From assembly GCA_963814275.1 (NCBI GenBank), contig CAWFCE010000002.1, positions 1,003,263 through 1,067,262 of the forward strand: 64,000 nucleotides of DNA, read 5' to 3'. Both the position numbers and the translations under genes were made by a program. Shown here one piece after another: positions 1,255-13,944 of this stretch. This DNA is from Candidatus Parcubacteria bacterium (GTDB lineage: Bacteria > Patescibacteriota > Patescibacteriia > Patescibacteriales > UBA12075). The notes under the pieces are model-generated. The model did not search any database and was not told where the DNA came from. It worked only from the letters and a program-made list of their open reading frames with translations. How positions within the stretch are numbered: position 1 is the first letter of the stretch; each line of letters begins with the position of its first letter.

Positions 1255-4200
1255 ATGATTATTGAAGCTGATTTTGATGAAGCTAAACAGTCGCAGCTAC
1301 CGGCGGTGGAGCTGCTTATAAATATGGGCTATGTTTATTTGCCCCGGGAGCAGGTTATGGCTAGCCGCGGGGGTAATGCCGCGCGTTTTATTTTGAAAGA
1401 CATTGCTTATGAAAAATTGCGGGAGATCAATTCCTATGAATACAAAGGCGAAATATATAAATTTACCGATAAGAACATTAAGGACGCGGTTGATGAGCTC
1501 GATAATATCCAGCTGGAAGGGCTCATCGATACCTCCAAGGCGGTTTATGACATGATCATGCGGACCGGGGGCAAGACCATAACCGAAGTCGTGGACGGCA
1601 AAAAGACCTCGCAGAACTTCCGGTTTATCGATTTTGACAACCCGGCCAATAATATTTTCCATGTCAGCGTTGAATTCGAAGCCTCGGGCAAAGGCGATAT
1701 CCGGCCCGACATCGTCTGCTTCATCAACGGCATTCCGTTTGTCGTGATCGAAAACAAAAAATCCAGCGTCGATATAAAAGACGCGATCACGCAAATGCAC
1801 CGCAACCAGCAGCCGGAACACTGCCCGCGCCTTTTTATCTATCCGCAGCTTTTAATCGGCGCCAACAAATATAAATTCCAATACGGCACCACCGGCACAC
1901 CCGGTAAATTCTATACCGCCTGGAAAGAAAAAGGCTTGGCTGAAGAGGGCGTTACCGATAAAAAACAATTGGAACTGGACAAACAAGCCAGGCAGGCGGT
2001 TGAAGACAGGGCCAAAGAGCTGATCGCAAGGCCAATTGGCCAAGAAATTTATGCGCAAATACTGCGCGACCTAAACGGGGCGACCAAGAATCATACGCAA
2101 GTATTGGACCGCTTGCCGACTGAACAAGACAAGGGAATAGTTAGCCTACTTGAGCCGGCGCGCTTGTTCGAGCTCACCCGCAATTTTATCCTCTATGACG
2201 CCGGCATAAAAAAGGTGCCGCGCTATCAGCAATTTTTCGCCGTCAACAAAATCCTTCGGCAAATTGAGAGCGAAGAGCCGGGCAAGACCGGCGCGCGGCG
2301 CAAAGGCGGAATCGTCTGGCATACCCAGGGCTCGGGCAAATCGCTCACCATGGTGATGTTCGTCAAAGCCCTGATCGAGAAAAAGGAAATTGATAATCCG
2401 CGGATCATTATCGTAACCGACCGCCGGGATTTGAACAAGCAGATAGCCGATACTTTCCGGGATTGCAAACTGAAGAAAAAAGTCTATTCGCCCAAGAGCG
2501 GCCGGGATTTACTCCGGCAGATAAAAAATAAAAGCACGGACGTGATTACCGTGCTAGTGCATAAATTCGAAAGCGCGCGCTACTCCCGGGCGGACTTTTC
2601 TGATCCGGACAAGAATATCTTCGTGTTAATCGATGAGGCCCACCGCACCCAGGGCGGCGAGGCCAACCTGGAAATGAACCGCACTATCCCTAACGCCTGC
2701 TTTATCGCTTTTACCGGCACACCCCTCTTTAAAGAAGAAAAATCACAGCAGAAATTCGGCGAGTTTATCGACAAATACACGATCGACGATGCCTTGGCCG
2801 ACAAGGTGATATTGCCCCTGGTTTATGAGGGCCGCTATACGCAAATGAAGCAGGACCGGGAGAGAATGGACAAAAAAGTCGACCGCGTTTTAGACGGGCT
2901 AAAAACGGAACACAAGAAAATTCTGCAAGGCAAGGTGAGCGACGCGATTATCAAGAACAACCCCAACCGCATTACCGAAATCGCTTACGACATTGAACAG
3001 CATTTTATCGCCAATTTCCAAGGCACCGGCCTCAAAGGGCAAGTGGTTTCCCCTTCGAAATTTTCCGCCGTGCTATTTCAGGAGTATTTTGCCAAATCAG
3101 GCAAACTGGAACCCGGCGGTAGTGATATCAGACGTCGGCAGCAAAGAAGAAGACGAGGAAGACGATCACCGGAAACCGGTCCTTGATTTTCTAAGGCAAA
3201 AAAAGCATGAGTATAAAAGCCTGGAATCCTACGAAAGGCACGTAATCGACAGTTTTAAGAATAACCCGGACGGCGTCGAGCTGATTATCGTGGTCGACAA
3301 GCTACTTACGGGGTTTGACGCTCCGCGCAATACCGCCTTATGTGGCCAAAGACCTGCGCGACCACAACCTGCTCCAGGCGATTGCCCGGGTGAACCGCTT
3401 GTTCGAAGCCAAGCAACGCCGAAGACCTCCGGTTTTATCATCGACTATTCCGAAAATGCCAAGAATCTCGATACCGCCATGAAGCTATTCGGCAACTACG
3501 ACGATGACGATGTGAAATCCGCCCTGATCGATGTCAACGAAAAAATCCATGAACTGGAAAAGAGCTATGACATGCTTCATGAAATATTCAAGGATCTGAA
3601 AGGCACGCGCGACGATGAGGCCTACATCCAAAAATTATTCGAAGAGCCGGAGCGGGAGCTGTTTTACAAAGCGGTAAATGAATTTATTAAATTATTTAAC
3701 GAGTGCCTGGCTTTGCGGGAGTTTGCCAATGAATTCAAGGACCTCGACGTTTATAAAAATGAACTGGAAAAAATTCGATAATCTGCGGAAAACCGTCCGC
3801 ATCCGCTACGCCGATTCGATTGATTTTACCGAATACAAACAGCGTTTAGTTAAGATCCTTGATCAATACGTGGACGCCGAATCGGTGGAGATCATGACTA
3901 GGCAGATTAATATCAACGATAAAGAGGCGTTCGACCAGGCGATCGAAACCCTAGGGTCGAATAAGTCCAAAGCCGAAGCGATCGCCGCCCATACCAAGAA
4001 AACCATCCACGAAAGAGAGCATACGGATCCGGAATTCTATCGGCGTTTTTCCGACAAGATTGCCGATCTGCTCAATAAGCTGCACCAGAAGAAGCTGGAA
4101 GACCTGGAGGCCTTAAAGCAAATGAAAGAAATAAGCGCCCAGGTGATAAAAAAAGAAGATGAATCGATTCCGGCCGGTATAAAAAGTCCAAGGCGCGGAT

Positions 4201-4532: not shown

Positions 4533-5252
4533 ATGACTAAACAGGTTTTTAGTTACGGCAAATATACTTATGATTATTATTTAATCAAGGAGGCGCGGCA
4601 AACGATCAGTTTGACCGTCAAGCCTGATTTGTCCGTGGTGCTCAAGAGCCCTATTGGCTACAGCAAAGAGAAAATCAATGCTTTTCTCAAGCGGAAATGG
4701 CTGTGGCTGGAAAAGCAGTTATCATTTTTTAAAAAGTTTCAGAATAATAATGGTAAAAAGGAATATATTTCCGGAGAAAGTTTTTTGTATTTGGGCCGGC
4801 AATATAAGTTGATTGTCTGCCAGGCCAAGAATAATCAGGTTAAGCTTGATCAAGGGAAGTTAATGCTGTTTACTAATGGTGGTGCGCGCAACGGCAAAAA
4901 TAATAAAAAAATTCTGGAAAAGTGGTACGAAGAAAAAACCAAGGATGTTTTATGCGCAAGATATCAAGAAGTATTGAAAAGTTTTAAAGTAAAAACAGTT
5001 CCTGATTTCGTTATAAAAAAAATGGATAAGCGCTGGGGCAGTTTTGTATCGAATAAAAAAATATTATTAAATCCTAAATTAATCCAAGCGCCGAAGTACT
5101 GCATCGATTACGTGATTACCCACGAGCTTTGCCACCTGGAGCGCAAGCGCCATGACAGCAATTTTTTTAAATTACTAGAGTCCAAGATTCCTAATTGGGA
5201 GAAGGTAAAGGAGAAGTTGGAGATGAAATTATTAACTGAAGGGAGGATGTAG
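4533..5252 (+). CDS. DUF45/YgjP-like (M48-type) zinc metallopeptidase, commonly linked to Type I R-M loci
   Basis: C-terminal HExxH motif (ITHELCHLERKRHDSNFFKLL) and overall YgjP-like layout; lies directly after hsdR. Confidence 0.8.
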   Translation: MTKQVFSYGKYTYDYYLIKEARQTISLTVKPDLSVVLKSPIGYSKEKINAFLKRKWLWLEKQLSFFKKFQNNNGKKEYISGESFLYLGRQYKLIVCQAKNNQVKLDQGKLMLFTNGGARNGKNNKKILEKWYEEKTKDVLCARYQEVLKSFKVKTVPDFVIKKMDKRWGSFVSNKKILLNPKLIQAPKYCIDYVITHELCHLERKRHDSNFFKLLESKIPNWEKVKEKLEMKLLTEGRM

Positions 5253-6395: not shown

Positions 6396-6854
6396 ATGTC
6401 AAAAAATATGAAACCAATTAAAACAATCGCCGGGAAAGTTCTTTTGTATTTTTATTATGTGCAAAGGACAGATACGGCCAAACTCTTTGATTTGGTTTTG
6501 AATTTCCAGATGAGAGACTTAAATAGCCGACAGGAAGAAATGCCCATCTTGGGAAGAACAGATACTTTGGTCCAAAAAAATCTATTAAAGCTTACCGATA
6601 CTGCCAATAACCTATTTAACGCCCTTCGGTATTTGAGGGACTTGGATTTTATCGAGATGAAATACTCGCCGGACAGAACCAACGATCATTTTTCCCTCTT
6701 CCGCGTCAAGTCCGGCGGGGTGGACGCTATCGAAGCAATCCTCAGGGGCAAAGAAGAAAAAGAGGAGTTTTATACTACATTTAACATCAAGCTACCTGAT
6801 AAAACCGATATTGAGAGCCTGCTTGAAAAACAGTTAGGCAGTTTGTATGAATGA
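6396..6854 (+). CDS. hypothetical protein, paralog A (possible winged-helix-like)
   Basis: ORF is about two-thirds identical by eye to 7789..8235. The true start may be the second Met (MKPIK, nt 6408), as in the paralog. Confidence 0.6.
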   Translation: MSKNMKPIKTIAGKVLLYFYYVQRTDTAKLFDLVLNFQMRDLNSRQEEMPILGRTDTLVQKNLLKLTDTANNLFNALRYLRDLDFIEMKYSPDRTNDHFSLFRVKSGGVDAIEAILRGKEEKEEFYTTFNIKLPDKTDIESLLEKQLGSLYE

Positions 6855-7788: not shown

Positions 7789-8235
7789 ATGAAACCAATC
7801 AAAACGATCGCCGGGAAAGTTCTTTTGTATTCTTATTTTGTCCAAAGGACAGATTATGCCCGACTCTATGACACAGCTTTTAATTTTCATATGAGAGACT
7901 TTAATGCAAGACAAGAAAAAATGCCCATATTGGGCGGGAAAGATAGTTCGACCATAAAAAATCTATTGGAACTTACCGATAATGACAATAACCTTTATAA
8001 TGCCCTTAAGTATTTGGAGGACAAAGGTTTTATCTCCATGAAATGCACTTCGGACAGGGTTTGCGATCTTATTTCTGAGCTCCGCGTCTTATCCAACGGG
8101 GTGGATGTGATAGAAGCCATCCTAAGGGGCGAAAAAGAAAGACAAGAGTTTTATACTACGTTTAACATCAAGTTAGTGGATAAAATCGATATTGAGGGCC
8201 TGCTTGAAAAACAATTAGGCAGTTTGTATAAATGA
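7789..8235 (+). CDS. hypothetical protein, paralog B of 6396..6854
   Basis: 148-aa ORF with AAGGA upstream of the ATG. N-terminal 14 aa and C-terminal ~45 aa are nearly identical to paralog A. Confidence 0.6.
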   Translation: MKPIKTIAGKVLLYSYFVQRTDYARLYDTAFNFHMRDFNARQEKMPILGGKDSSTIKNLLELTDNDNNLYNALKYLEDKGFISMKCTSDRVCDLISELRVLSNGVDVIEAILRGEKERQEFYTTFNIKLVDKIDIEGLLEKQLGSLYK

Positions 8236-8264: not shown

Positions 8265-9036
8265 GGGTTCAAATAATGAACCCCTACGACGCGGCGGCCC
8301 TCACCCGCCACGGGTGCGACCGGGGCACCCTCTCCCACTCGCGCGGGTCGCGGGAGAGGGAAAATAGGAAAAACATATTATATCGCGATATCGTGTAGGG
8401 GCACAGGATTCTGTGCCCTGGTGTTAGGATGATGAAGATGGTATGGACGCGTAATGGTTTGAAAAGAAATCTATTCGTCTTTAAACCTTCGTGGAACGGG
8501 TTCAGAATCCTGAACCCCTACAGATCGGGTTATAAACGGACGGGGGATACGCGGGTTCAGAATCCTGAACCCCTACAAAATATATAAGACATTGTATGCG
8601 CCGCGTAGGGGCACAGGATTCTGTGCCCTGGTGTTAGGACGATGATGATGGTATTGACGCGTGATGGTTTGAAAAGAAATTAATCATATTTAAACCTTCG
8701 TGGAACGGGTTCAGAATCCTGAACCCCTACAGATTGGGTTATAAACGGACGGGGGATACGCGGGTTCAGAATCCTGAACCCCTACAGATCGGGTTATAAA
8801 CGGACGGGGGATACGCGGGTTCAGAATCCTGAACCCCTACAAAATTGACAAGACATTGTATGCGCCGCGTAGGGGCACAGGATTCTGTGCCCTGGTGTTA
8901 GGACGATGATGATGGTATTGACGCGTGATGGTTTTAAAAGAAATTGTTCGTATTTAAACCTTCGTGGAACGGGTTCAGAATCCTGAACCCCTACGACGCG
9001 GCGGCTTCGCCCGCTTGCGCGGGTCGCGGGAGAGGG
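8265..9036. repeat. REP-like hairpin array 1 (7 class-A and 3 class-B hairpins in about 3 higher-order units)
   Basis: Class A GGGTTCAGAATCCTGAACCCCTAC at 8265 (degenerate), 8498, 8553, 8707, 8762, 8817, 8971. Class B GTAGGGGCACAGGATTCTGTGCCC at 8395, 8605, 8869. Confidence 0.95.
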
Positions 9037-9143
9037 GAGATGGGGGAAATATATAATGCGTATGGGTTTGAGGATTTCGTGCTTTGGCAATATTTTGCGA
9101 AAAATAGCTATTAGGAGGTTGATAGAGACAAACGGAAATTAGT

Positions 9144-9176
9144 AAAAAAAATGACGTCATCGGGGGATGACGTCAT
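9144..9176 (-). terminator. Rho-independent terminator for the minus-strand small-protein pair
   Basis: atgacgtcat-cggggg-atgacgtcat hairpin with a 7-nt U-run on the minus strand. Confidence 0.65.
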
Positions 9177-9215
9177 ATGTTTTACAGGTATTTTAAAGGA
9201 CGTGTTAGATTGGCA

Positions 9216-9482
9216 TTAATCTTCGTTGTTGTTGTCGCAAACAACGCAGGAGCCGCCATCCGTTATATGGCCGCAGGATGAACATCTGATCGGATCGCCT
9301 TCGTCGTTTCTCGTTCTGACAAACCTTGTTGTTTCATAATTTCTCTTGCTGGACATTGTCTTCGGTTGGCCAGAAGAATTTGCTTTTTTGCTCCCGGTTG
9401 TTCCGGAATCTTGTTTGCTCCCCTTTGAAGCAAGAATAAAGATAAATACTACGATAAACAATATTATCCAAAATCCTTCCAT
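9216..9482 (-). CDS. small membrane-anchored zinc-ribbon protein (88 aa)
   Basis: AAGGAG SD; N-terminal TM helix (FWIILFIVVFIFILA); C-terminal CSSCGHIT-x5-CVVCDNN. Confidence 0.65.
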   Translation of the reverse strand: MEGFWIILFIVVFIFILASKGSKQDSGTTGSKKANSSGQPKTMSSKRNYETTRFVRTRNDEGDPIRCSSCGHITDGGSCVVCDNNNED

Positions 9483-9501
9483 TTATATTCTCCTTTTTGT
9501 G

Positions 9502-9759
9502 TCAATCATTGTTGTCGCAGTATGAGCAGTATCCATCATTAAAAGTGACGTTACCGCAAGTTGAACAGATTTTTCCCTCGCTTTTACTGTTTGGTTCTAC
9601 ACTTGAGTGATAGATGGCACTATATGGTTTTGTGTATTTTTCCGCCTCCTTTGCCCTTACTTTTTTCTCTGTGGGTTTGTCCTTGCCATTCTTGCCGCCC
9701 AGGGCCAGTAAAATCAATAAGCCAAAGATGAATAACGCGATCGATGCTTCTCCGGACAT
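9502..9759 (-). CDS. small membrane-anchored zinc-ribbon protein (85 aa), tandem paralog of 9216..9482
   Basis: AGGAGG SD; N-terminal TM helix (IALFIFGLLILLAL); C-terminal CSTCGNVT-x5-CSYCDNN. Confidence 0.65.
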   Translation of the reverse strand: MSGEASIALFIFGLLILLALGGKNGKDKPTEKKVRAKEAEKYTKPYSAIYHSSVEPNSKSEGKICSTCGNVTFNDGYCSYCDNND

Positions 9760-10015
9760 TTTGCACCTCCTTGATTGATAGTTGTATATTGGATTTTGGT
9801 GTTGAACAATTATTTTATTTCAATATCACATTTGCATGATAACGATTCAGTATATATTATTCCATTATAAAATGTCAATTTTGCCAAAACATATTATTTA
9901 TTCAGATAGGTTTATTCGCCAATTATGGCCATTTTTGCTATAATGAAATTAATCTAGACCATGATCCGGTTTATAATTAATTCCGAAACACTCGGTACCA
10001 TACAGAAAAACAAAT

Positions 10016-10483
10016 ATGAGCGTCCAGGAGATCGTAAAAAGAGGAAAATTGACGCCTAAGGGCGTGGCAAGAGTCCTCAAAATAATAGATAAGTATATGT
10101 TTATCTTGAAATATGCTTACTTGGACGCGAAAAACTCCCGTACCTATTGGGAACAGGCCAAAGAATATTATGAACATGAAGATTGCGACGAATCGGACAC
10201 CGATAATCTATATTATCTGGCGATAAAAATAAGCGCGGCCAAGAAAGAATTGTTTTATATTTACGCCAAAGACGTTTTCGAGTTTTTCTACGTCAATTAC
10301 CGGGAAAAAGCGGATGAATATTACTACCACCAATTCCCCCTGGACAGGAAGCGCTACGAAAAAGAGCGCGTACCCATAGCCAGATTAAAACCCCTGTTGG
10401 ACAACAAGAATTATCTGGACGAGGAATTTGTAAATCTGATCGAAGAAACCGCGGCAGTGTTCCATAAATGCCTGAAGAAATAA
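10016..10483 (+). CDS. hypothetical protein (155 aa, Tyr/Glu-rich)
   Basis: ORF only; a TGcTATAAT promoter-like element lies upstream at 9937-9944. Confidence 0.5.
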   Translation: MSVQEIVKRGKLTPKGVARVLKIIDKYMFILKYAYLDAKNSRTYWEQAKEYYEHEDCDESDTDNLYYLAIKISAAKKELFYIYAKDVFEFFYVNYREKADEYYYHQFPLDRKRYEKERVPIARLKPLLDNKNYLDEEFVNLIEETAAVFHKCLKK

Positions 10484-10497
10484 CAAGTCCGTGCATA

Positions 10498-11139
10498 GGG
10501 TTCAGAATCCTGAACCCCTACAAAATTTCGAAAAATGCTATATTTAAATTAATATTAAATATGGACTCAAGGAGGAGGAAACAAATACGATTGTTGGATT
10601 ATGATTATTCGCAGGAAGATGCTTATTTCATCACCATATGTACAAACAATCGAATTTGTCATTTCGGTGAAATCAAAAATGATAAGATGTTATTGAATAG
10701 TACCGGTAAGGCCGCGGATTATTATTGGCAGGAAATTCCGGCACATTATCCGAGGGCGGTCTTAGACGAATATACCGTTATGCCCAATCATATTCACGGT
10801 ATAATTATTATCGACAAGGATCACGATACGTCTGTGAACAGGGAATTTCCTACGCAATCAGCGCAACCGGATGATTCGATTAACCGGTTCCAACACATAA
10901 TTCCGAAATCTATCGGGTCAATAATTCGGGGGTATAAACTAGGCATGACCAAATGGGTCAGAGAACATACAAAAACCAATACGATATGGCAACGGTCATA
11001 TTATGACCATATCATCCGCGACGAGAAAGCAATGGACGAAATCAGGGCATATATTATAAATAATCCCGGCAATTGGGATAACGACCGAAATAACCTTAAA
11101 AATTATCACCCAACCGTAGGGGCACAGGATTCTGTGCCC
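10498..11139 (+). mobile_element. RAYT unit: class-A hairpin, Y1 transposase gene, class-B hairpin (IS200/IS605-like architecture)
   Basis: Class-A hairpin at 10498-10521 and oppositely oriented class-B hairpin at 11116-11139 bracket the transposase ORF. Confidence 0.8.
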
Positions 11140-11148
11140 TGGTGTTAG
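10561..11148 (+). CDS. REP-associated tyrosine transposase (RAYT), IS200-like Y1 HUH family
   Basis: MDSRRRKQIRLLDYDYSQEDAYFITICT… N-terminus typical of the family; HUH motif MPNHIHGII; catalytic Tyr region WQRSYYDHIIRDE. The track start at 10468 would read through the upstream hairpin, so Met at 10561 is preferred. Confidence 0.85.
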   Translation: MDSRRRKQIRLLDYDYSQEDAYFITICTNNRICHFGEIKNDKMLLNSTGKAADYYWQEIPAHYPRAVLDEYTVMPNHIHGIIIIDKDHDTSVNREFPTQSAQPDDSINRFQHIIPKSIGSIIRGYKLGMTKWVREHTKTNTIWQRSYYDHIIRDEKAMDEIRAYIINNPGNWDNDRNNLKNYHPTVGAQDSVPWC

Positions 11149-12200
11149 AACGATGACGATGGTATTGACGCGTGATGGTTTTAAAAGAAATTGTTCGTAT
11201 TTAAACCTTCGTGGAACGGGTTCAGAATCCTGAACCCCTACAAAATTGACAAGACATTGTATGCGCCGCGTAGGGGCACAGGATTCTGTGCCCTGGTGTT
11301 AGGACGATGATAATGGTATTGACCCGAAATGGTTTGAAAAGAAATTAATCATATTTAAACCTTCGTGGAACGGGTTCAGAATCCTGAACCCCTACAGATC
11401 GGGTTATAAACGGACGGGGGATACGCGGGTTCAGAATCCTGAACCCCTACAAAATTGACAAGACATTGTATGCGCCGCGTAGGGGCACAGGATTCTGTGC
11501 CCAGGTGTTAGGTTGATAAAGGTGGTATTGACGCGTAGTGGTTTGAAAAGAAATTATTCGTTTTGAAAATCTTCGTGGAGCGGGTTCAGAATCCTGAACC
11601 CCTACAGATCGGGTTATCAACGGACGGGGGATACGCTGGTTCAGAATCCTGAACCCCTACAAAATTGACAAGACATTGTATGCGCCGCGTAGGGGCACAG
11701 GATTCTGTGCCCAGGTGATAAGATCAATAAGGATGATTTTAACGCGTGATGGTTTGAAAAGAAATTAATCGATTTAAAAACCTTCGTGGAACGGGTTCAG
11801 AATTCTGAACCCCTACAGATCGGGTTATCAACGGACGGGGGATACGCGGGTTCAGAATCCTGAACCCCTACAAAATTGACAAGACATTGTATGCGCCGCG
11901 TAGGGGCACAGGATTCTGTGCCCAGGTGATAAGATCAATAAGGATGATTTTAACGCGTGATGGTTTGAAAAGAAATTATTCGTTTTGAAAATCTTCGATG
12001 ATCGGGTTCAGAATTATGAACCCCTACAGATCGGGTTATAAACGGACGGGGGATACGCGGGTTCAGAATCCTGAACCCCTACAAAATTGACAAGACATTG
12101 TATGCGTCGCGTAGGGGCACAGAATCCTGTGCCCAGGTGTTAGGACGATAACGATGGTATTTACGTATTATGGCTCGAAATGATATAAATCATTTTGGGC
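11116..12200. repeat. REP-like hairpin array 2 (9 class-A and 6 class-B hairpins in about 5 higher-order units plus a degenerate tail)
   Basis: Class A at 11218, 11372, 11427, 11582, 11637 (tgg variant), 11793, 11848, 12004, 12059. Class B at 11116, 11270, 11479, 11689, 11900, 12111. Confidence 0.95.
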
Positions 12201-13317: not shown

Positions 13318-13944
13318 ATGGCGATAGCTGTGAGAAATTACGGTACTATAATGGCTGGAAAAAAATATAACAACAAGGATCTGGTGCAGGGGGCCGGCAG
13401 CCTTTGGCTGTTGGTCATTGTTGTTATTTATTTTGGCGACCGGAGAATATTCTATCAGGTTTTGGTCTTGAGCCTGATCGCCCTGGGCCTTTTGTTGGGA
13501 TTGGTGGCAATAGTCAGGAAAAGGCGCTTTGGCCATATTCTGGAACAATCAGACGGACAACGGCAATTGGCAAAGCTTAGACAGATGAAGCCGGATGAAT
13601 TCGAGGACTTCATCGCCGACCTTTACCGCCGCCTGGGCTATGCGACCGAACGGGTGGGCGGCTCGCCTGGCGGAGGCATAGACGTCACCGCCAAAAAGAA
13701 CGGAGTGATATACTATATCCAGTGTAAGAAATTCATAAATTCAAAAGTAACCATCCATAATGTCCGGGATTTTTATGCTACGATGGCTAATAATCTGGCT
13801 GCCGGCAAAGGCATATTCATCACCACCAATATATTCACCGCAGAGGCGATCAAATTTGCCGCAGACAGGCCGTTGGCATTGATCGACGGAGTTAACTTAT
13901 TAACGCTAATAAAACAGGCCGGGAAAGACGATCAACCAACCTGA
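13318..13944 (+). CDS. membrane-anchored restriction endonuclease-like protein (Mrr_cat-type domain)
   Basis: Two N-terminal hydrophobic helices, then FEDFIADLYRRLGY…GGIDVTAKKNGVIYYIQCKKF…VRDFYATMA…GIFITT, matching the Mrr catalytic-core pattern. Start codon uncertain. Confidence 0.65.
   Translation: MAIAVRNYGTIMAGKKYNNKDLVQGAGSLWLLVIVVIYFGDRRIFYQVLVLSLIALGLLLGLVAIVRKRRFGHILEQSDGQRQLAKLRQMKPDEFEDFIADLYRRLGYATERVGGSPGGGIDVTAKKNGVIYYIQCKKFINSKVTIHNVRDFYATMANNLAAGKGIFITTNIFTAEAIKFAADRPLALIDGVNLLTLIKQAGKDDQPT

Follow-up and report, generated by a model that had tools for sequence, protein, structure and literature searches.

A probable REPtron with locally arrayed GTAG hairpins in a Patescibacteria genome

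[quoted passage not shown] The question is raised by positions 8265 to 12200 of a 64,000-nucleotide stretch from a Candidatus Parcubacteria bacterium (assembly GCA_963814275.1, contig CAWFCE010000002.1, positions 1,003,263 to 1,067,262), where a single RAYT gene is surrounded by short hairpins tagged with the tetranucleotide GTAG. We refer to the whole 64-kb stretch as the window, and all coordinates below are positions in it. REPtrons, which consist of a tnpA_REP gene with its flanking REPs, contain more than one REP subfamily in nearly half of the cases described (Quentin et al. 2018, PMC6006769), and a full-text literature search found no paper on REP/RAYT systems in the CPR. We consider it likely that this locus is a REPtron, that is, one TnpA_REP/RAYT gene, encoding a single-stranded DNA endonuclease/ligase of the Y1 HUH (histidine-hydrophobic-histidine) type, together with cognate GTAG hairpins in arrays that resemble bacterial interspersed mosaic elements (BIMEs), in a host that belongs to the Patescibacteria.

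The RAYT gene and the GTAG hairpins

The RAYT gene (10561..11148, + strand, 195 amino acids), of which the window holds one copy, lies between a hairpin of class A (10498) and a hairpin of class B (11116). Its product passes the Pfam profile Y1_Tnp (PF01797) narrowly, with 24.7 bits against a cut-off of 23, and matches the NCBIfam profile REP_Tyr_transpos (NF047646) with 54.4 bits (E = 1e-14). Among 1497 database homologues the closest, besides the protein itself, are 53-56% identical, and the named ones are labelled 'transposase', 'putative transposase' or 'REP element-mobilizing transposase RayT'. The AlphaFold model, built on 42 homologues (mean predicted local distance difference test score, pLDDT, 83.7), has as its top PDB match in Foldseek the TnpA_REP of Escherichia coli with a REP hairpin (4ER8_A; E = 2e-6, TM 0.52/0.60), followed by the TnpA proteins of IS608 and ISDra2, and a profile of the 42 homologues retrieves 4ER8 as its sole PDB match. 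An earlier sequence-only reading of the stretch had taken the open reading frame (ORF) for a REP-associated Y1 HUH enzyme, and both the Pfam search and the top structural match uphold that identification.

When the profile of the 42 homologues is aligned with 4ER8, the HUH motif and the motifs W-Q-x4-[ED]-H-x2-R and Y-x3-N fall into register, the residues of the E. coli enzyme being W94, Q95, E100, H101, R104, Y115 and N119. The HUH residues of the window protein are H77 and H79 (H77-I-H79); the catalytic tyrosine is Y164 (in IRAYIINNP), aligned to Y115, and N168 is aligned to N119. W143, Q144, D149, H150 and R153 correspond, with identical spacing, to W94, Q95, E100, H101 and R104, which are the GTAG-contact residues listed for the E. 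coli enzyme by Quentin et al. (2018, PMC6006769), and the exchange of E for D at this contact position is also found in subclasses 2.5 and 2.7 of the same study. Of the two motifs that had been proposed from sequence, the HUH motif stands, but the segment WQRSYYDHIIR, there thought to carry the catalytic tyrosine, is the GTAG-recognition segment. With the catalytic and GTAG-contact residues all present, the enzyme looks intact. Residues ~85-117 form a low-confidence loop in the AlphaFold model and are predicted to be disordered.

A motif search of the window found 16 copies of class A (GGGTTCAGAATCCTGAACCCCTAC) with at most two mismatches, located between 8498 and 12082 and with the motif on the + strand throughout, and nine copies of class B (GTAGGGGCACAGGATTCTGTGCCC), eight of them exact and one, at 12111, with two loop changes; the number of matches expected by chance in shuffled sequence is 0.00 for either motif. 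The seventeenth class A copy that had been counted exists only as a degenerate copy at the left edge of the locus (8265..8287, - strand; GGGTTCAAATAATGAACCCCTAC on + and GTAGGGGTTCATTATTTGAACCC on -), with a 7-bp stem and a 5-nucleotide loop; the count of nine for class B was correct. An independent hairpin finder, which looks on both strands for perfect stems of 7 bp or longer that are preceded by GT[AG]G, returned 25 sites in the window, all of them within 8265-12134. Read from the GTAG, the two classes are built alike, of GTAG, an 8-bp stem and a GATT loop, and they differ at stem positions 4-5 alone, where TT/AA in class A stands against CA/TG in class B, a fully compensatory change. The GTAG of every class A copy is on the - strand, and that of every class B copy is on the + strand. 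The stem base is GGG/CCC and the feet are single, that is, of the canonical type. Mutated copies retain their folding, with 7-bp stems at 8265 and 12004 and a 9-bp stem at 11793. In the last class B copy (12111-12134) the stem is intact and the loop GATT has become AATC, its reverse complement, which looks like a flipped loop. The proposed picture of two structurally equivalent classes, compensatory at two base pairs, opposite in orientation and present within the window only as arrays at the RAYT locus, is confirmed in each of these respects.

Of GT[AG]G-tagged 8-bp hairpins, 25-26 in all are located between 2.3 kb upstream and 1 kb downstream of the RAYT gene. It has arrays on both sides and, within about 1 kb, a class A REP upstream (10498..10521, - strand), placed 39 nucleotides before the start codon with its CTAC foot toward the gene, and a class B REP (11116..11139, + strand) that overlaps the 3' end of the ORF; motif search and hairpin finder thus agree with the earlier description of the gene as flanked by inverted GTAG-tagged hairpins. 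The class B REP encodes VGAQDSVP and, together with the start of the linker that follows it (of the type named S79 below), supplies the last ten codons (VGAQDSVPWC) and the stop codon of the gene (TAG, 11146-11148, in the linker). Stop codons are often supplied by REP ends (Di Nocera 2013).

Array structure, divergence and growth

Every interval in both arrays can be parsed by one grammar, (B-S79-A-(S31-A)0-2-S28)n, with three types of linker: S79 (78-80 nucleotides), S31 (31 nucleotides) and S28 (28 nucleotides). The left array (8395..8994) holds three class B hairpins (8395, 8605 and 8869; +) and six of class A (8498, 8553, 8707, 8762, 8817 and 8971; GTAG on -). The right array (11116..12134) packs 15 hairpins into 1.02 kb, six of class B (11116, 11270, 11479, 11689, 11900 and 12111) and nine of class A (11218, 11372, 11427, 11582, 11637, 11793, 11848, 12004 and 12059), and fades into unique sequence through a truncated S79-like tail (aggtgttaggacgataacgatggtatt...; 12135..12200). 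Tandem Repeats Finder (TRF) reports periods of 55, 154, 209, 211 and 264 nucleotides in the arrays, and the unit numbers vary in simple steps of 55 nucleotides (A plus S31) and of about 154/209-211 nucleotides. The RAYT gene occupies the slot of an S28 linker, with the A at 10498 on one side and the B at 11116 on the other, and this A is followed by six bases (aaaatt) that match the beginning of S28. The left array is enclosed by direct repeats, formed by the degenerate A copy, A', plus a GC-rich module G1 (8265-8375) on one side and by A plus a second such module, G2 (8971-9050), on the other. G1 (8288..8375), directly after an A copy, has a compound hairpin (CCCTCTCCC...GGGAGAGGG), and G2 (8995..9050), also directly after an A hairpin, is a shorter, homologous copy of G1. 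Both modules contain CCCTCTCCC...GCGCGGGTCGC...GGGAGAGGG, G1 with 31 extra nucleotides, and their composition is far from the surrounding 39-46% GC.

Both arrays repeat, in tandem, a succession of alternating REP and inverted REP (iREP) joined by defined linkers, as BIMEs do. Classes A and B are better described as the REP/iREP partners of a BIME, with class B as the REP and class A as the inverted REP, than as the left and right ends that the sequence-only reading had made of them: the two are inverted relative to each other, each strand offers one class with a 5' GTAG hairpin, and an iREP was neither bound nor cleaved by the Ec and Sm enzymes, the two tested for it (Corneloup 2021). When folded as single-stranded DNA, each module yields small hairpins that stay apart from one another (z-scores between about -3.6 and -5.1), and long B-A pairing of the type seen in REP doublets forming hairpins (REPINs) is only marginally competitive, because the stems of A and B differ. 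By analogy with the REP subfamilies Y and Z of E. coli, the compensatory stem difference plausibly prevents a perfect long palindrome between inverted neighbours.

Two other identities of the arrays were considered and rejected. A CRISPR array does not fit, since all three linker types are themselves repeated and there are no unique spacers, and neither does a coding repeat, since 3 does not divide the unit lengths of 209 and 211 nucleotides and the arrays are not spanned by any long ORF. Rfam gave no match at gathering score in the array region and one sub-threshold chance match in a search to E = 1; at gathering thresholds it gave two tRNAs only in the window, both distant from the locus, and no tRNA or other RNA gene in the region. 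The hairpins of the locus have no T-runs 3' of them, and a promoter scan of S79 returned weak consensus matches only, at 9/12 positions.

The modules of these arrays have diverged to very different extents. Mismatch to the consensus is 1.0% for A, 0.9% for B, 1.4% for S31 and 2.0% for S28, against 10.6% for S79 (hairpins versus S79, Fisher P = 2e-14); the short linkers S28 and S31 thus vary about 5-8 times less than S79 and the hairpins about 10 times less, and the A-S28-B doublet (76 nucleotides) is the most uniform module of all. Hairpins and short linkers, then, must be under constraint, be subject to homogenisation or have been copied recently. The S79 linkers differ from each other by 17% on average, and their variants are mosaic and common to the left and right arrays (8893 matches 11140, and 8629 matches 11294); within the right array, 5' halves are common to 11713 and 11924 and 3' halves to 11503 and 11924. 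Such mosaic variants imply recombination between units.

If the locus is a REPtron, as we think likely, its enzyme would bind GTAG and hairpin in single-stranded DNA and would cut a nearby dinucleotide through Y164. On the - strand, CT stands immediately 5' of GTAG for each A that is preceded by S31, and each class B copy is followed by CCC|T or CCC|A; judged by the CT and CA sites of other enzymes (Corneloup 2021), the CT 5' of the A GTAG and the CCC|T or CCC|A 3' of B are candidate cleavage sites. The cumulative GC skew climbs over almost the entire window, levelling off near 30-32 kb, which suggests that the + strand is leading-strand sequence and hence lagging-strand template. This in turn suggests that, on the lagging-strand template, class B would show the active orientation, with GTAG 5', and class A the inverted one. 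Local growth of the arrays would have come about through slippage or unequal recombination among the modules that bear hairpins, a process that fits the stepwise number of 55-nucleotide units and the mosaic linkers. Nicks made by the RAYT, followed by strand transfer, possibly assist or seed this growth, in which the hairpins and short linkers would be kept uniform.

A bolder proposal, which we put forward as speculation and judge to be unlikely, is that REPs are being amplified in cis: a RAYT of the type of subclass 2.4 (see below), having lost its intragenic REP, would be actively copying the 55-nucleotide A+S31 and the 76-nucleotide A-S28-B at its own locus. If true, this would explain the ~5- to 10-fold uniformity relative to S79, the fact that the hairpins are not (yet) dispersed, and an array denser than those of the homologues compared. 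A minimal CPR genome would then offer a natural system for REP/BIME array formation, a step that has so far only been modelled.

The arrays could also be viewed as a satellite that owes nothing to the RAYT, produced by slippage and RecA-mediated unequal crossing-over, with the enzyme as an inactive or irrelevant passenger. The simple steps of 55 and about 154/209-211 nucleotides in unit number would suit such an origin, as would the mosaic S79 variants, which point to homologous recombination, and the hairpins might be kept for a use of the host, as terminators or insulators, as stabilisers of mRNA 3' ends or as sites for nucleoid proteins; the RAYT mRNA does have a B hairpin at its 3' end, and REPs have been reported to stabilise or terminate transcripts (Di Nocera 2013; Corneloup 2021). 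We nevertheless find a satellite of this kind quite improbable, given a full-length RAYT whose catalytic and GTAG-contact residues are all intact, hairpins that bear the exact GTAG foot and GGG/CCC stem base of this RAYT clade across phyla, and the lack of T-runs after the hairpins. Moreover, slippage alone leaves unexplained why S28 and S31 (5-8 times) and the hairpins (~10 times) are more uniform than S79 in the same units.

The position of the RAYT gene directly between one A and one B, and a fold that also resembles the TnpA of IS608 and ISDra2, recall an autonomous transposon of the IS200/IS605 type, with A as left end, B as right end, the RAYT inside and the three small genes between the arrays possibly as cargo. 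However, the ends of IS200/IS605 elements show the same hairpin on one strand, whereas A and B are mutually inverted, and inverted REPs were no substrates for two enzymes tested (Corneloup 2021). The gene is found once in the window, not in several identical copies; its closest structure and its family profile are those of TnpA_REP and not of TnpA_IS200; and the small genes have promoter- and terminator-like signals of their own and do not accompany RAYT homologues elsewhere. A transposon of this type is therefore very improbable. Although units of 55-264 bp at 91-98% identity are hard for short reads, it is hardly credible that the arrays are artefacts in which the assembler expanded or joined a repeat wrongly, because copies are not identical (S79 differing by 17% on average, with mosaic, position-specific variants), divergence is uneven, the number of A-S31 sub-units differs between units, the copies at both edges are degenerate, and similar, smaller clusters lie beside RAYT homologues in independent assemblies (L143, L093, L102 and L105 of the comparison loci).

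Several observations weigh against a REPtron and temper our confidence. Dispersal is the usual hallmark of REPs, and the hairpin finder detected no GTAG hairpin on either strand in the other ~60 kb of the window. The RAYT misses the equivalog cut-off of NF047646 (80 bits, against a score of 54.4), which is consistent with membership in a clade other than that of the E. coli enzyme. Unlike most homologues, it has no intact intragenic hairpin in its loop (residues ~85-117; hairpin finder), and the hairpins at homologue loci are mostly double-foot, whereas those of the window are single-foot. The enzymes assayed by Corneloup (2021) belong to groups 2 and 3 only. Finally, the copy number of the arrays is that of the assembly, and the uniformity of hairpins and short linkers could come from recent slippage alone, with the RAYT uninvolved.

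Host and neighbouring genes

The DnaB protein encoded in the window is 82-85% identical to its nearest database relatives, those with names being Parcubacteria group bacterium ADurb.Bin316, Candidatus Falkowbacteria and Patescibacteria, and the CPR-like host that had been suspected is thereby corroborated. The database holds no RAYT closer than 56%, though relatives at the 85% DnaB level are present in it, a contrast that fits an acquisition of the RAYT by transfer. The locus is flanked by genes for a type I restriction R subunit (1255-3186), a YgjP-like metallopeptidase (4533-5252) and a Mrr-type restriction endonuclease (13318-13944), and the REPtron would thus sit in a variable, defence-island-like stretch. 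Two paralogous ORFs of ~150 amino acids (6396-6854 and 7789-8235), with 68% identity and no Pfam domain, immediately precede the locus on its upstream side.

Three small genes lie between the arrays. A bidirectional terminator-like hairpin with an 11-bp stem (9151..9176) separates them from the left array. The first two, of 88 amino acids (9216..9482, - strand; N-terminal hydrophobic segment, C-terminal CxxC...CxxC) and 85 amino acids (9502..9759, - strand), are weak paralogues of each other (28% identity, E = 3e-8) and gave no family match; these tandem paralogues each have a hydrophobic segment at the N-terminus, a Lys-rich linker, a zinc-ribbon-like C-terminal motif CxxC-x9-11-CxxC and the ending DNN(N)(E)D. 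The third, of 155 amino acids (10016..10483, + strand), is located upstream of the RAYT gene and belongs to a rare family, with 12 distant full-length homologues among 1.84 billion representatives and no known domain in Pfam or NCBIfam. Promoter-like sites are seen on the - strand at 9878-9849 (TTGACA-18-TATACT) and on the + strand at 9916-9944 (TCGCCA-17-TATAAT with an upstream TG). The ORFs are where the sequence-only reading had placed them, but its view of them as trapped cargo finds no support, given these signals of their own and their failure to recur: tblastn of the three proteins against the 161 comparison loci gave no match. The three genes are neighbours of the RAYT, and nothing links them to the REP/RAYT system as cargo.

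Related loci and known systems

The hairpin family extends well beyond the window. The pattern GTAGGGGNNCAGRATYCTGNNCCC is present in at least 80 genome stretches, from Latescibacterota, Chloroflexota (Ardenticatenales), Fibrobacterota, Bacteroidota, Cyanobacteria, Omnitrophota, Desulfomonile, Patescibacteria and Peribacteria; none of the 80 stretches is from the contig of the window. Among these stretches, the two free stem positions of the 24-nucleotide hairpin are complementary in 122 of 135 instances, and the stem types among the instances listed are TT/AA (46), CG/CG (42), CA/TG (28) and CT/AG (6). The two stem classes of the window are thus variants that already existed in a widespread hairpin family, and neither is peculiar to this locus. 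Across many phyla the 24-nucleotide hairpin, GTAGGGG-NN-CAGRATYCTG-NN-CCC, is often found in a fully palindromic 'double-foot' form, GTAG...CTAC, and some genomes contain many dispersed copies (for example, Latescibacterota NC_groundwater_1462 and the Ardenticatenales co275_164 metagenome-assembled genomes, MAGs). In a Desulfomonile MAG and a Pseudomonadota MAG (L048, L036, L029, L057 and L003), hairpins of the class A type (GTAGGGGTTCAGAATCCTGAACCC) share the 3' flank ttgctatgcc; they are direct repeats about 850-1000 nucleotides apart and may belong to a larger repeated element.

At 70 of 80 metagenomic loci with a RAYT homologue, a GTAG hairpin lies in frame within the gene, ~10-15 codons past the HUH motif, and an external hairpin whose stem is identical is present at 19 loci. 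The protein consensus of the intragenic hairpin is VGVQNxxPL, with translations such as VGVQNSEPL, VGAQDSVPL, VGAQHAAPL and similar peptides, in which residues 3 and 7 covary (V..E, A..V, A..A, A..E) exactly as stem pairing predicts. At the corresponding place in the window (10838-10861) the sequence is gtgaacagggaatttcctacgcaa (SVNREFPTQ), which ends in CCTAC and may be the remnant of a decayed hairpin. Hairpin clusters occur beside the RAYT homologues of L143 (9 in 2 kb, with a ~200-nucleotide period), L102, L105 and L093, and no REP arrays were seen at L081, the locus on the longest contig among those of the closest RAYT matches. The window array, with its 25-26 hairpins, is denser than that of any of the 161 comparison loci, where the maximum is 9 per 2 kb, in a comparison in which short-read contigs probably under-represent such arrays. 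L093 has two hairpin classes, set apart by a compensatory change in the stem and by their loops, in inverted pairs with a 295-nucleotide period; between 89 and 6361 of this locus, GGGCGAAT... (+) and GGGCGCAT... (-) form abutting inverted pairs, an independent case of two compensatory classes in opposite orientation.

These homologues point to a place in existing classifications. The hallmarks of TnpA_Y1 subclass 2.4 are an intragenic in-frame REP between the HUH and Tyr motifs, double-foot GTAG...CTAC hairpins and a GGG/CCC stem base (Quentin et al. 2018, PMC6006769), and the homologues of the window RAYT (35-56% identity) show all three, the intragenic REP at the 70 of 80 loci mentioned above. 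The window hairpins share the three G-C pairs at the stem base, in canonical form where the subclass has canonical or double-foot REPs, and the window gene lacks the in-frame REP between the HUH and Tyr motifs. RAYTs of group 4 are often found in Cyanobacteria, Chlorobia and Caldilineae, and the 16-mers that flank them have a low abundance genome-wide (Bertels et al. 2017); subclass 2.4 and group 4 resemble the present locus and its relatives in a patchy distribution across phyla and, as far as the 64 kb of the window show, in flanking repeats that are rare in the genome as a whole. The homologues of the window protein carry the hallmarks of subclass 2.4 and probably correspond to Bertels group 4, an assignment based on shared features and similarity and not on the profiles of those authors.

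Other systems resemble the locus in single traits. In the REPtrons Ma and Mb of Marinomonas sp. MWYL1, as in the window, REPs cluster next to the tnpA_REP gene, a pattern that the authors interpret as a recent arrival followed by local multiplication (Corneloup 2021). REP_Sm of Stenotrophomonas maltophilia, which is cleaved at a CT dinucleotide and whose inverted form is neither bound nor cleaved (Corneloup 2021), is like the window hairpins in having GTAG directly before a perfect 8-bp stem with a short loop. Unlike the window protein, the enzymes of Marinomonas and S. maltophilia are members of groups 2 and 3, from Gammaproteobacteria whose genomes are large. REPINs (Bertels and Rainey 2011) are units of two inverted REPs with a short spacer, to which the 76-nucleotide A-S28-B would correspond, but the window doublet folds preferably as two small hairpins, and dispersed doublets were found neither in the window nor in viral contigs, a scan of which for the A-linker-B doublet gave no match.

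The closest parallel in architecture is the REPtron of E. coli K-12 (tnpA_REP/yafM), in which, as in the window, a single Y1 HUH gene is accompanied by GTAG hairpins of two related subfamilies in inverted pairs; there, subfamilies Y and Z2 form three such pairs (Quentin et al. 2018, PMC6006769). The two enzymes align at their GTAG-contact and catalytic residues, and in the BIME-2 arrays of E. coli REP and iREP likewise alternate in tandem with defined linkers. The differences are equally clear: the REPs of E. coli are long, imperfect, bulged palindromes, dispersed in about 600 copies genome-wide, whereas those of the window have short perfect 8-bp stems and are seen only beside the gene; the two proteins are ~19% identical in structural alignment, and the window RAYT falls below the NCBIfam equivalog threshold; and the host is a CPR bacterium with a genome of 1.27 Mb, while class 2 TnpA_Y1 genes have been reported to favour large genomes.

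The novelty implied by the sequence-only reading is not sustained, as local multiplication of REPs at tnpA_REP, two subfamilies per REPtron and tandem REP/iREP arrays have all been published. Every conceptual element of the locus has a precedent, in REPtrons, in inverted pairs of two subfamilies, in REP clusters at tnpA_REP and in GTAG hairpins across phyla, and the current picture of REP biology is unchanged by it. What the locus does is to extend REP/RAYT systems to a streamlined Patescibacteria genome and to provide a compact, well-resolved case, with two hairpin classes, three linker types and clear contrasts in divergence, that would be a handy set of substrates for the first biochemistry of the subclass 2.4 type and useful for asking how BIME-like arrays grow. 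Set beside the known systems, it is unusual in its small-genome host, in the density of its hairpins and their purely local occurrence in the visible 64 kb, in the lack of an intragenic REP, and in the roughly tenfold contrast in divergence among the modules of its arrays.

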